NCBI RefSeq assembly: GCF_035655815.1
Contig: NZ_DASRTS010000035.1
Location: 26,050 to 90,049, forward strand
Length of the DNA stretch: 64,000 nt
Reading direction: 5' to 3'
Source of the DNA: Lysobacter sp.
Lineage (GTDB): Bacteria; Pseudomonadota; Gammaproteobacteria; Xanthomonadales; Xanthomonadaceae
The notes under the pieces were generated by a model. It had not been told where the DNA came from. It searched no databases and was given only the letters and a program-made list of their open reading frames with translations. Of the stretch, positions 8,306 through 12,602 are shown piece after piece; position 1 is the first letter of the stretch; each line of letters begins with the position of its first letter. The translations under genes and the position numbers were made by a program.

Positions 8306-8522
8306 CCTTCGCAGTCACACATCAATTTGATCTTCGCAACGCCATGAACATTTTCTTCCCCATCGCCCAGCACGACGCACGCAAGCCCAACGGCTTCGGT
8401 CTGCGTGCGCGCGACGAACACGGCCACTGCGACTGATCTCCTGCACACGGGAGGTCGGTCACCCCGACCTCCCGAGGAACGCGAACGCCCTCGGGTCCGC
8501 AACCCGGGGGCGTTTTCTTTTT
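8306..8522 (+). ncRNA. Candidate ~215-nt independent transcript (sRNA or tiny-ORF mRNA) bounded by a promoter and an intrinsic terminator
   Basis: Predicted TSS lies downstream of the 8271-8299 promoter. There is a perfect 10-bp hairpin at 8449-8473 and a terminator at 8484-8522. The contained 30-codon ORF (8344-8436) has no Shine-Dalgarno sequence. Confidence 0.3.
8484..8522 (+). terminator. Rho-independent terminator
   Basis: 12-bp stem AACGCCCTCGGG / CCCGGGGGCGTT (one G-U pair), 7-nt loop, followed by TTCTTTTTGG. Confidence 0.75.
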
Positions 8523-8837
8523 GGCGTTCGCAAAGGCCAACACACGATCACAACGCGATTGCATCGCGCGATCCCGAAGCATCCGGAACATGCTGGTTTC
8601 GAGGCAGGGAACGCCGTGAAGCGCTGATGCGCTGTGCCTGGATGCTTCGGCACGGGCGGCACGCGGATGCACTCGCACAACGGATTGATGTCTTCGGGTT
8701 CGCCGCCCGGAGGCGTCAGTGCACGGCACATCGGCGGAACATCCACAGCGGCACGGGTTCGTGGCGGAAGCCTCACCCTTCCGGTGCGCGCGGCGCTGCC
8801 GTGGCGTATGCCGTGGATCGATGCAGTGTGTCGTGAG

Positions 8838-8907
8838 CGGACGATAGCTCAGCAGGAAGAGCATCGGCTTCACGCCGACGCCACCGGTTCGAATCCGGTT
8901 CGTCCAC
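8838..8907 (+). ncRNA. tRNA-like element 1 (non-canonical: truncated anticodon arm, C1-A72 mismatch)
   Basis: Canonical D-arm (TA GCTC AGCAGGAA GAGC) and T-arm (ACCGG TTCGAAT CCGGT). Acceptor CGGACGA / TCGTCCA gives 6 bp plus a terminal C-A mismatch. The anticodon arm is TCGGC-TTCAC-GCCGA, a 5-nt rather than 7-nt loop. Total length is about 70 nt. The 3' end reads ...TCGTCC-ACCA if the stem is taken as 6 bp. Confidence 0.6.
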
Positions 8908-8983
8908 CACTGGATAGCTCAGTCGGGTAGAGCATCAGGTTCATCACCTGAGTGTCGCGGGTTCGATTCCCGCTCCAACGACC
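8908..8983 (+). ncRNA. tRNA-like element 2 (non-canonical: weak acceptor stem, CAT-type loop with C at position 37)
   Basis: It starts with zero spacer after element 1. D-arm is TA GCTC AGTCGGGTA GAGC. Anticodon arm is TCAGG-TTCATCA-CCTGA. Variable loop is GTGTC. T-arm is GCGGG TTCGATT CCCGC. Acceptor CACTGGA / TCCAACG pairs at only 5 of 7 positions. The 3' end is ACC-T, so no CCA is encoded. Confidence 0.6.
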
Positions 8984-9392
8984 TGTCACGTCGTTATCCA
9001 AGGGCGAAAGCCCACAACGGAAACACCCCGCGCGGTGTTCCACCGGCACGTCGCCATGTGCGTCGTGCACAACGGAACGCCGCAGCGGTGACATCGCCGA
9101 CCTGTTGCCCTCGAAGCATGAGCGACGGTTGTACGAACGCAATCCTGGCAGCGTCATCGCCATGGAGCGCGGAACGCAGCCGCCGCGTGCAGGCAGCGCA
9201 ACGGGGCCGCGATGTTGGCGTGGGGTGTTTCCATCTTCTTCTTTTCCTCCTGTCTGCAGGAGGGAGCGTGCTCGGTTTGGCGCATGCGCCGACGTATGCC
9301 GCAACCCTCTTCCAGCGAAGAGCAGCATAAGCAACGCGACAACCGATCCCTCGCGCACAAGCGGATCGGACCACCAGAGCCAACAAGGAGAC

Positions 9393-10526
9393 ATGAAGAT
9401 GTTCTGGACCAAGAGGGTCGTGATCGGTGACGGCGAGCGCGGCCTGGTGTATCGCAACCGTCAACTCGAAGCCGTGCTGAAGCCCGGCGTGTACAGCTGG
9501 TTCGATCCGCTGGACCGGATCGAAGTGAAGCTGCACAACATCGTGCTGCGCCCGGAATACGTGGGCAGCGACGAGAGTGCGCTGATCGATCGCCTCGGCG
9601 ATGCGCTCGGCGAGACCTTCGTGCTGGCCGACATCGGCATGGACGAGGTCGGCCTGGTACTGAAGAACGGCAGGATCGAAGAGGTCCTGGCGCCCGGCGA
9701 GCGTCGCCTGTACTGGAAGGGCCCGGTGTCGGTGGAGGTTCGCACGCTGTCGCTGGACGAGACGCTGGAAGTTCCGGCGGCGGTCGCCGCGCGCCTGCGC
9801 CAGTTGTCCTCGCTGGAGCGTGTGGCGGTGGTGCTGGCGGTGCCGGCGGAGTTCGCCGGCCTGGTCTTCATCGACGGCAGGCTGGCGCGCGTGCTCGATC
9901 CGGGCACCTACGCGTTCTGGAACTTCCGCCGCAACGTCGTGGCACAGTCGGTCGATCTGCGCGTGCAGTCGATCGACGTGTCGGGCCAGGAGCTGCTGAC
10001 GCGCGACAAGGTGAGCCTGCGCGTCAATCTGGCCGCCAGCTTCCGCGTCACCGACGCGGTGGCCGCGATCACGCGCGTCGCCAAGTACGGCGAGTACGTG
10101 TACCGCGAGCTGCAGTTCGGCCTGCGCAAGGCGATCTCCGCCAAGACGCTGGACGAACTGCTGGGCGACAAGGCCTCGCTGGACGCCGACATCTTCGGCT
10201 ACGTGCGCGGCCGCACCGGCGAACTCGGCATCCAACTGCTCGGCGTGGGCGTCAAGGACGTGATCCTGCCGGGCGAGATGAAGGAGATCCTCAACAGCGT
10301 CGTGCAGGCGGAGAAGGCGGCCCAGGCCAACGTGATCCGTCGTCGCGAGGAGGCGAACGCCACGCGTTCCCTGCTCAACACCGCACGTCTGATCGAGGAG
10401 AGCCCGGTGCTGATGCGCCTGAAGGAGCTGGAGGCTCTGGAGAAGGTGACCGAGAAGATCGACAAGCTGACTGTGTTCGGCGGCCTGGATGGCCTGATGA
10501 AGCAGTTGGTGAGCCTGAAGCAGTAA
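9393..10526 (+). CDS. SPFH/Band-7 (stomatin/prohibitin-like) protein, apparently soluble, with a triplicated N-terminal repeat
   Basis: AAGGAG RBS at 9385-9390 and ATG at 9393. The C-terminal half has an SPFH-like core (LLTRDKVSLRVNLAASFRV ... GIQLLGVGVKDVILPGEM ... AEKAAQANVIRRREE coiled coil). There is no N-terminal hydrophobic anchor. The 524-aa track ORF is an upstream over-extension across the tRNA-like elements. Confidence 0.85.
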   Translation: MKMFWTKRVVIGDGERGLVYRNRQLEAVLKPGVYSWFDPLDRIEVKLHNIVLRPEYVGSDESALIDRLGDALGETFVLADIGMDEVGLVLKNGRIEEVLAPGERRLYWKGPVSVEVRTLSLDETLEVPAAVAARLRQLSSLERVAVVLAVPAEFAGLVFIDGRLARVLDPGTYAFWNFRRNVVAQSVDLRVQSIDVSGQELLTRDKVSLRVNLAASFRVTDAVAAITRVAKYGEYVYRELQFGLRKAISAKTLDELLGDKASLDADIFGYVRGRTGELGIQLLGVGVKDVILPGEMKEILNSVVQAEKAAQANVIRRREEANATRSLLNTARLIEESPVLMRLKELEALEKVTEKIDKLTVFGGLDGLMKQLVSLKQ

Positions 10527-10641: not shown

Positions 10642-11865
10642 ATGAACACGCAACACGATTACGAGCTCCTGCACGCCGAGGGTGCGTCCACGCCGATCAA
10701 GGGCTGGGTGCGCGGCGTGCCGGTCGAGGACAAGGCACGGCAGCAGCTGCGCAACATCGCCACCCTGCCCTTCGTCGGGCCGTGGGTGGCGGTCATGCCC
10801 GACGTGCACCTGGGCATTGGTGCGACGGTCGGATCGGTCGTGCCCACGCAGGGCGCGATCATCCCGGCCGCCGTCGGCGTCGACATCGGCTGCGGCATGG
10901 CCGCGGTCCGCACGACGCTGCGCGCCAGCGACCTGCCCGACGACCTGTCGCTGCTGCGCAATTCCATCGAGCGCAGCGTCCCGGTCGGCAACGGCCCGGG
11001 CGGCGATCATCGCCGCATTCCGGACAGCGTCGAGACGAGGCTCGCGCAGTCGGGCCTGATGGCACGGCTGGAGGTGATCCGTCGCAAGCATCCGAAGATC
11101 CGCCCCGACAAGGCGGACCGCCAGATCGGCACGCTGGGCGGCGGCAACCACTTCATCGAGATCTGCCTGGACGAGAGCGACGCGGTGTGGGTGATGCTGC
11201 ACTCGGGCTCGCGCGGCACCGGCAACCTCATCGGCACGTACTTCATCGAGCTGGCGCGCCGCCAGCTGGAGAAGCGCGTGCTCGGTTTCCACGTGCCCGA
11301 CCGCGACCTCGCGTTCTTTCTGGAAGGCGAGGACCTGTTCGCGGACTACGTGGAGGCGGTGTCGTGGGCGCAGGACTACGCGCGTGCCAACCGCGAGGCC
11401 ATGATGGGCCGCGTGCTGCACGAGATGCGCCACCGGCTGCCGAAGTTCCAGCTGGAGAAGGCGGCAGTGAACTGTCACCACAACTACGTCCAGCGCGAGG
11501 AGCACTTCGGCCAGCCGCTGCTGGTGACCCGCAAGGGCGCCGTCAGCGCACGCGAAGGCGAGCTGGGCATCATCCCGGGCAGCATGGGCGCACGCAGCTA
11601 CATCGTGCGCGGCAAGGGCAACGCGGACAGCTTCCACAGCTGCAGCCACGGCGCCGGCCGCGTGATGAGCCGCACCGCCGCCCGCGCGCAGATCACGCTG
11701 AAGCAGCACCGCGAGGCCACCGCACACGTCGAATGCCGCAAGGACGCCGGCGTGATCGACGAGTCACCCGCCGCGTACAAGGACATCGACGCGGTGATGG
11801 CCGCGCAGTCGGAGCTGGTGGACATCGTGCACACGCTGAGGCAGGTGGTGTGCGTGAAGGGGTGA
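10642..11865 (+). CDS. rtcB: RNA-splicing/repair ligase RtcB (3'-phosphate/5'-hydroxyl RNA ligase)
   Basis: 407 aa with MPDVHLGIG, GVDIGCGM, HSGSRGTGN, NCHHNY, IPGSMG and SCSHGAGR metal/GMP-histidine motifs. AAGGA RBS. It lies 115 nt downstream of the SPFH gene on the same strand. Confidence 0.95.
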   Translation: MNTQHDYELLHAEGASTPIKGWVRGVPVEDKARQQLRNIATLPFVGPWVAVMPDVHLGIGATVGSVVPTQGAIIPAAVGVDIGCGMAAVRTTLRASDLPDDLSLLRNSIERSVPVGNGPGGDHRRIPDSVETRLAQSGLMARLEVIRRKHPKIRPDKADRQIGTLGGGNHFIEICLDESDAVWVMLHSGSRGTGNLIGTYFIELARRQLEKRVLGFHVPDRDLAFFLEGEDLFADYVEAVSWAQDYARANREAMMGRVLHEMRHRLPKFQLEKAAVNCHHNYVQREEHFGQPLLVTRKGAVSAREGELGIIPGSMGARSYIVRGKGNADSFHSCSHGAGRVMSRTAARAQITLKQHREATAHVECRKDAGVIDESPAAYKDIDAVMAAQSELVDIVHTLRQVVCVKG

Positions 11866-12480
11866 GGCCACGCGCTTGCGAAGCGTAGCTTCGCGCGTGG
11901 CCGAACGCCCGGCCATGGATGGCCGGGCCGGGCGTTCCGGAGCCGATCGCGTTACGCCCTGGATGGCAGCGACACCTTCATCGAAGCACCGAACGCGGCC
12001 TGCCGCGCGGCAGGCCGAACGCCCGGCCATGGATGGCCGGGCCGGGCGTTCCGGAGCCGGTCGCGCTACGCCATGGAGGGCAGCGACACCTTCATCGAAG
12101 CAGCACGTGCGCCATGTCGCGCGTGGCCGAACGCCCGGCCATGGATGGGCGAGGAGGAATGCTTGCGCGCCACTGGCGCGCATTCCGACGAGCGCCCGGC
12201 CATGGATGGCCGGGCCGGGCTTTCCGAAGCCAGTCGCGTCGCGCCATGGATGGCAGCGACACGTTCATCGAAGCACCGAACGCGGCATGCCGTGCGACAA
12301 GCCGAACACCGGCCATGGATGGGCAAGGAGGAATGCTTGCGCGCCACTGGCGCGCGTTCCGACGAACGCCCGGCCATGGATTGGCCGGACCGGGGCTCCA
12401 AAGCCAGTCGCGCTACGCCATGGATGGCAGCCACACGTTCAATCGAAGCACCAAGCGCGGCATGTCGTCATTTCCGCAAG
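11866..12480. repeat. Mosaic array of palindromic intergenic repeat modules (BIME/REP-like), at least 6 core copies
   Basis: It starts with a 10-bp hairpin at 11866-11902. The core GAACGCCCGGCCATGGATGGCCGGGCCGGGCGTTCC recurs at about 11903, 12017, 12129, 12190, 12303 and 12364. A second module, CGCCATGGATGGCAGCGACAC.TTCATCGAAGCA, recurs 4 times. A third module, GGAGGAATGCTTGCGCGCCACTGGCGCGC.TTCCGACGA, recurs twice. Confidence 0.85.
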
Positions 12481-12602
12481 ACCGGAATCCACGGACCTTT
12501 TTTGAGCCTTGCTGTCCGCCTGCTGAAACATAGTTCCGCGCTAGCCTGGCTGGCAGAAGCTATGGCTCTCGTAATCAGGTGCACCGGGAAAGCGTGAAAC
12601 GT

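Follow-up and report, generated by a model that had tools for sequence, protein, structure and literature searches.

SPFH proteins are regarded as membrane organisers, and those encoded beside rtc genes are without a known role. In a 2016 abstract, Burroughs and Aravind reportedly described SPFH/Band-7 modules as potential scaffolding cofactors that work with a tRNA-like RNA. The excerpted text of a later preprint (bioRxiv 10.1101/312249) ascribes to these authors the prediction that some bacteria have RtcB next to a Band-7 protein and to b7a-tRNA, a tRNA-like RNA, and likens the Band-7/b7a-tRNA pair to Ro60 with its Y RNA. By this excerpt, a soluble scaffold of the Band-7 class, joined with a tRNA-like RNA beside RtcB, was already proposed in 2016 (bioRxiv 10.1101/312249). 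In Pseudomonas aeruginosa, the SPFH gene paFlo8 (protein PaFlo8, PA14_60630) is located inside the rtc locus, according to the available portion of PMC13086221. Here, we analyse an SPFH gene of Lysobacter sp. that is flanked by two tRNA-like modules and by the gene for the RNA ligase RtcB. It lies in a window of 64,000 nucleotides (nt) of contig NZ_DASRTS010000035.1, the window being the whole stretch of DNA under study. We show that the membrane-facing SPFH1 subdomain is present three times in the encoded protein, that no transmembrane (TM) segment precedes it, that the protein belongs to a widespread family and that its gene linkage is conserved.

The Lysobacter locus shares with the Band-7/b7a-tRNA/RtcB system the gene order (tRNA-like RNA, Band-7, RtcB), the conservation of this linkage and the lack of a TM segment. 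It differs from it in that the genome has no match to RtcR, RlaP or TROVE/Rsr, and in carrying two tRNA-like modules in a leader of ~830 nt. Control by RtcR/sigma-54, known from the forms in Pseudomonas and E. coli, does not define every member of the system; the Lysobacter genome has no RtcR match. PaFlo8 is comparable by gene context, an SPFH gene among RNA-repair genes, and differs in that its locus has RtcR, RtcA and RtcB, as far as the available text of that study goes. Ro60 (Rsr) with Y RNA/YrlA, as outlined in the excerpted preprint, is likewise a scaffold protein with a tRNA-mimicking RNA adjoining RtcB; yet no TROVE protein was found in the Lysobacter genome and the protein folds are unrelated. 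As the system is already predicted in print, the gain of the present analysis is a sharper anatomy: SPFH1 is present three times here and has expanded independently elsewhere in the family. Tandem SPFH1 modules were not found described in the literature searched, which covered few subscription papers and left Burroughs and Aravind 2016 outside. A term search of a preprint on RlaP (10.64898/2025.12.29.696909) found no mention of the SPFH protein, and PMC6514570 does not mention it either.

The SPFH/Band-7 (slipin-type) gene occupies 9399..10526 on the + strand and encodes 375 amino acids (aa); an alternative ATG at 9393 gives 377 aa. The ATG at 9399 is the likelier start, because AAGGAG is found 8 nt before it and the database homologues have 375 aa. 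Translation of 9393-10526 (+) yields the protein of a preliminary description of this DNA, and all aa numbers given here count from the ATG at 9393 (377-aa form). The closest named homologues are Lysobacter proteins with 81-82% identity, and the homologues carry the NCBI label 'slipin family protein'. Pfam Band_7 (PF01145) is the sole Pfam match, covering aa 150-321 with 117.8 bits (cut-off 23.6); aa 1-149 gave no match in the Pfam search. The same holds for the 29 aligned relatives, all of which match Band_7 and none of which matches a Pfam family over the N-terminal part. Comparison with the sequences of solved structures returned stomatins as the top six PDB sequences (E 5e-22 to 2e-14). 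An NCBIfam search of the protein gave HflK/HflC matches only, all sub-threshold, and in PADLOC the SPFH protein and RtcB match no defence-system family.

The preliminary description had claimed three N-terminal repeats ahead of a coiled coil, and all three quoted repeat cores are indeed present in the translation. The core at aa 84-111 was placed correctly, whereas those given as aa 13-38 and 153-177 were off by one and are found at aa 14-39 and 154-178. Pairwise local alignment of the three segments gave scores of 56, 50 and 47 versus 22-24 (standard deviation 4.0-4.5) for shuffled sequences, and in each of the three pairs all 500 shuffles stayed below the actual score. A hidden Markov model (HMM) of the unit, built from the three modules of the 29 relatives, matches the protein three times with ~60 bits each (A 63, B 61, C 60 bits). 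Among the other 27,516 open reading frames (ORFs) of the genome it finds a single weak match (20.7 bits), at the start of Band_7 in an HflK-like ORF. The motif with which a single SPFH domain begins is thus significantly repeated, and occurs three times as had been proposed. Since Band_7 covers aa 150-321 only, copy 3 is the ordinary start of the SPFH domain, to which copies 1 and 2 have been added.

Module A extends over 9411..9542 (+; aa 7-50), with a helical linker to aa 75 (nt 9617), and module B over 9618..9755 (+; aa 76-121), with a helical linker to aa 144. Both are SPFH1-like. Module C (9834..9962, +; aa 148-190) is the protein's own SPFH1 subdomain, and the Band_7 match begins there. 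It is followed by the SPFH2 alpha/beta core (9963..10268, +; aa 191-292). The stretch 10269..10523 (+) encodes long helices (aa 293-359) and a conserved tail at the C-terminus, as delimited by structure model, alignment conservation and stomatin alignment; this C-terminal region is highly conserved among the relatives and aligns to the C-terminal region of stomatin.

The predicted structure identifies the fold of the extra units. An AlphaFold2 model of the full-length protein, built on the 29-sequence alignment, has a mean predicted local distance difference test score (pLDDT) of 86.9 and, over aa 11-290, blocks that exceed 90. Each of the three units comes out as five beta strands, followed after A and B by a helical linker: strands at aa 6-49 and a helix at 61-75 for A, strands at 76-120 and helices at 129-144 for B, and strands at 145-188 for C, which continue directly into the SPFH core. 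The alpha/beta fold of this core and the long helix behind it are both present, the C-terminal helices being modelled at aa 293-335 and 338-359. The term beta-hairpin repeat, used in the preliminary description, therefore holds as to the repetition and fails as to the single hairpin, the unit being modelled as a five-stranded beta module with a helical linker. Residues 1-148 were also modelled separately (pLDDT 89.5, predicted template modelling score 0.79), and this model was aligned to 48,161 representative PDB chains with no prefilter. The top seven matches are all SPFH proteins, each at its N-terminal SPFH1 region: prohibitin (23-70), HflK (88-137, 27% identity, two entries), QmcA (11-60), erlin (18-64) and stomatin (46-97 and 44-97, two entries). 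On re-alignment of 998 chains, SPFH proteins again filled the whole top 15 among the matches listed. A Foldseek search with this N-terminal model (aa 1-148) gave nothing at E ≤ 0.001; cyclic-nucleotide-binding kinases came top with low probability, and SPFH chains had high probability with poor E-values. On the strength of the modelled fold, the extra N-terminal units are copies of the SPFH1 subdomain.

Stomatin (Pyrococcus horikoshii PH1511), HflK/C and QmcA combine a TM helix or hairpin with one SPFH1 module. The Lysobacter protein differs from such membrane SPFH cages by three SPFH1 modules and no TM segment. The absence of a TM segment had been noticed earlier and is borne out by a 19-residue Kyte-Doolittle hydropathy scan, which was used in place of a dedicated TM predictor. 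The most hydrophobic window (aa 144-162, mean 1.92) is located at the junction of B and C and is folded as two beta strands in the model. The genome's four other SPFH ORFs served as positive control, and each has a segment of 2.15-2.84 near its Band_7 domain. In 39 of the 40 full-length family members, the same scan shows every window below 2.0. A lipobox is absent as well, the N-terminus having no cysteine able to form one. These data bear on a reading in which the protein is a peripheral membrane SPFH protein: the extra SPFH1 modules would form a membrane-binding surface that replaces the TM helix, as in TM-less flotillins, the complex would still serve to organise a patch of membrane, and its RNA-repair neighbours would be explained by stress co-regulation and not by physical partnership. 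NfeD and membrane proteases are the usual partners of membrane SPFH proteins. Here, the tight and widespread linkage is instead to a tRNA-like RNA (55/72 loci, see below). Together with the missing hydrophobic segment in 39/40 members and the missing cysteine or lipobox near the N-terminus, this makes the peripheral membrane reading unlikely, though not negligible.

By sequence comparison, the protein with the tripled module belongs to a standard family and is no one-off. Residues 1-150 alone, searched against 1.84 billion representatives, retrieve 453 clusters at 50% identity (E ≤ 1e-3), 127 of them at E ≤ 1e-10. The spread is patchy: the N-terminal domain occurs in 17 of 400 other sampled Pseudomonadota genomes, and in 12 of 212 genera when the window's own genome is included. 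The three-module layout is kept at 36-82% identity in the 29 aligned members, in Gamma- and Betaproteobacteria and beyond. Of the 17 sampled loci, 15 encode three modules in a single ORF; in one, a TAG stop splits the gene, and in one the number of modules is five. The split locus (L095, G087:C1:2813266-2816661) carries a single TAG between modules B and C and is either a pseudogene or a sequencing error. In 40 full-length sequences, the unit HMM counts three modules in 28, four in three, five in eight and two in one, the last being the 924-aa protein P0238. Module-specific HMMs resolve the long forms as A-B-C-B-C, A-B-A-B-C and A-B-B-B-C, that is, as products of different internal duplications. 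P0238, a metagenomic representative, has ~690 residues before the SPFH core. In this protein, the most vault-like architecture of the family, at least six B-like modules precede C; the family as a whole ranges from three to seven or more modules.

As copy number varies by different internal duplications, a modular wall element fits the data. The opposite view, in which an internal duplication persists neutrally or in decay and the repeats have no function of their own, is most improbable. The layout is kept over the range of identities given above, the modules of distant members still score 20-60 bits each with the unit HMM, and both structure models are confident.

RtcB is encoded at 10642..11865 (+; Pfam RtcB 416.5 bits) and is the only RtcB found in the genome. 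Its gene starts 116 nt after the SPFH stop (115-nt gap) on the same strand. RtcR (PF06956), RlaP and TROVE/Rsr gave no match in this 100%-complete genome; with one RtcB and none of these three, the locus represents a minimal form. Linkage was assessed in 80 loci of species-representative genomes, of which 72 had enough upstream and 67 enough downstream DNA. A tRNA-like gene lies at most 1 kb upstream on the same strand in 55/72 evaluable loci (ARAGORN), and RtcB downstream on the same strand in 44/67 (tblastn). The RNA-associated context seen in the preliminary description, with two tRNA-like genes upstream and RtcB downstream, is thus kept among relatives, and the repeats do not define a subfamily unrelated to RtcB loci.

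Several side observations concern this neighbourhood. In L077 (972-2135), the tRNA-like RNA and the SPFH gene have RtcB on their upstream side, not downstream. In 11/72 relatives' loci, at least five tRNA genes on the same strand precede the tRNA-like RNA and the SPFH gene, so that tRNA gene arrays are tied by position to the SPFH RNA-repair unit in these loci. The arrays comprise 5 to 20 ordinary-looking genes (e.g. L043:411-3679, L042:172-3737, L038:1332-3294, L029:32-971). In the Lysobacter window, ORF translations on both strands of 11876-12600, 3' of rtcB, contain identical peptide strings several times over, which suggests a cluster of intergenic repeats resembling repetitive extragenic palindromes (REP-like).

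Upstream of the SPFH gene, the preceding unit ends in a terminator-like site (8483-8515). The conserved leader then begins with a structured 5' part (8560..8837, +), recognised from conserved blocks in an alignment of eight Lysobacterales loci. Two tRNA-like modules follow, both detected by ARAGORN. Module 1 (8838..8907, +) matches Rfam tRNA with 50.2 bits and has a shortened 5-nt anticodon loop; module 2 (8908..8981, +) matches with 52.7 bits and has two acceptor-stem mismatches. The anticodon of module 2 differs between species, so that this module is not a decoding tRNA. The 3' part of the leader (8984..9392, +) contains hairpins and a long-range pair of complementary blocks and ends at the ribosome-binding site, just before which a further conserved block was noted (leader 8560-9392, ~830 nt). 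Conservation in the eight loci runs from ~8560 to the start codon, and complementary blocks flank both tRNA-like modules. Judged from alignment and complementarity, 8560-9392 looks like one large structured RNA, not two separate tRNA-like genes. A YrlA profile matches weakly across the junction of the two modules, with 25.1 bits and hence below the gathering score of 69. A sigma-54 promoter, picked out by eye at a GGCAC block of the leader, was rejected: the spacing to GC misfits the consensus, and the block pairs with an upstream complement. A sigma-70 promoter scan returned 0 sites. Contigs from soil RNA libraries (Logan; four libraries, two of which look like a single data set) that are 90-99% alike to the locus cover 8736-9087, 9958-10526 and parts of rtcB. 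These contigs are short, stem from relatives, may include DNA carry-over and are without transcript starts or ends; their almost complete lack of cover over the repeat-coding part proves nothing.

The tRNA-like RNA is the most constant neighbour of the SPFH gene, and at the Lysobacter locus two extra protein modules face two tRNA-like modules. Modules A and B might accordingly be RNA-recognition units, each docking one tRNA-like module of the leader, in a protein that acts as RNA chaperone or holder and not as a cage. The conservation of two module A residues, E15 in 24/29 and R16 in 27/29 members, would suit such a role. The number of modules shows no relation to the number of tRNA-like genes in the 17 sampled loci: zero to three tRNA-like genes (ARAGORN) are nearby while three modules are present in 16/17 (one split by the stop), and the sole five-module locus has no upstream ARAGORN match. 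The mean net charge of the N-terminal modules in the 29 members is about zero (+0.7, -0.2 and -0.4), and G, P, L and W make up most of their conserved positions, a pattern expected of fold determinants, which also counts against RNA binding. Specific docking of this kind is quite improbable.

We consider it probable that the SPFH gene encodes the Band-7 protein of the predicted Band-7, tRNA-like RNA and RtcB RNA-repair system, and that this protein forms a soluble or peripheral chamber. Its C-terminal 230 residues are an ordinary stomatin-type unit of SPFH1 module, SPFH2 core, coiled-coil helices and conserved tail. The TM anchor that normally precedes such a unit appears to be replaced by two more SPFH1 modules, each with a helical linker. 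By way of SPFH2 and the helical parts, the protein would assemble into a ring or dome like the solved complexes of stomatin, HflK/C and QmcA, with stacked SPFH1 tiers extending the wall at the point where other SPFH proteins contact the membrane. Such an assembly would form a chamber or platform, soluble or attached peripherally at most, that acts on damaged RNA together with the RtcB ligase and the co-transcribed tRNA-mimic leader RNA. We infer the oligomerisation, the location and the contact with RNA or RtcB. The cytosolic RNA-linked scaffold of the preliminary description is plausible. Its observation of the repeats is confirmed, while its interpretation is partly supported and had already been published as a prediction.

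A number of points weigh against a soluble RNA-repair chamber. The near-neutral charge of the N-terminal modules gives no electrostatic hint of RNA binding. In solved SPFH cages such as HflK/C, and in the flotillin literature, SPFH1 is the membrane-proximal tier. One of the 40 full-length members, P0168 (416 aa), has an N-terminal TM-like segment (3.23) before the same three modules and may be a membrane-tethered form. SPFH1 facing the membrane and the N-terminus of P0168 together leave room for peripheral membrane binding. RtcB is absent downstream in 23/67 loci, and no recurring family takes its place there (42/44 candidate ORFs in 22/23 loci were scanned, leaving aside the start-truncated L021 and two ORFs below 100 aa; many of the ORFs are possibly spurious in GC-rich DNA). 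The job of the SPFH protein may thus be independent of RtcB. Deletion of paFlo8 gave no phenotype in growth, virulence-factor, motility, biofilm and oxidative stress assays, as reported in the portion of PMC13086221 that was available.

The domain order of the Lysobacter protein recalls the major vault protein (MVP), in which beta modules also precede an SPFH core and a long helix, the number of modules is variable or high and an RNA is a partner. Profiles of the Vault repeat and the MVP shoulder gave no Vault-family match at E ≤ 1 in any of the 29 members, and the likeness is one of analogy only. In a bolder extension of the soluble chamber, which we hold to be rather unlikely, the family would form soluble vault-like ribonucleoprotein shells. 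The SPFH dome would be closed by SPFH1 tiers (three here, seven or more in the 924-aa member) and not by membrane, and two domes, possibly joined rim to rim as vault halves are, would enclose the tRNA-mimic RNA and RtcB.

If stacked copies of the membrane-facing SPFH1 have taken the place of the anchor, it becomes a concrete structural question whether a soluble cage surrounds an RNA-repair reaction. SPFH1 copy number has changed several times in evolution. The question of a soluble cage also bears on the origin of the vault shell, which combines beta repeats with an SPFH shoulder. Should vault-like shells prove true, the tandem SPFH1 modules would be a bacterial counterpart, and possibly an evolutionary model, of the MVP repeat barrel.
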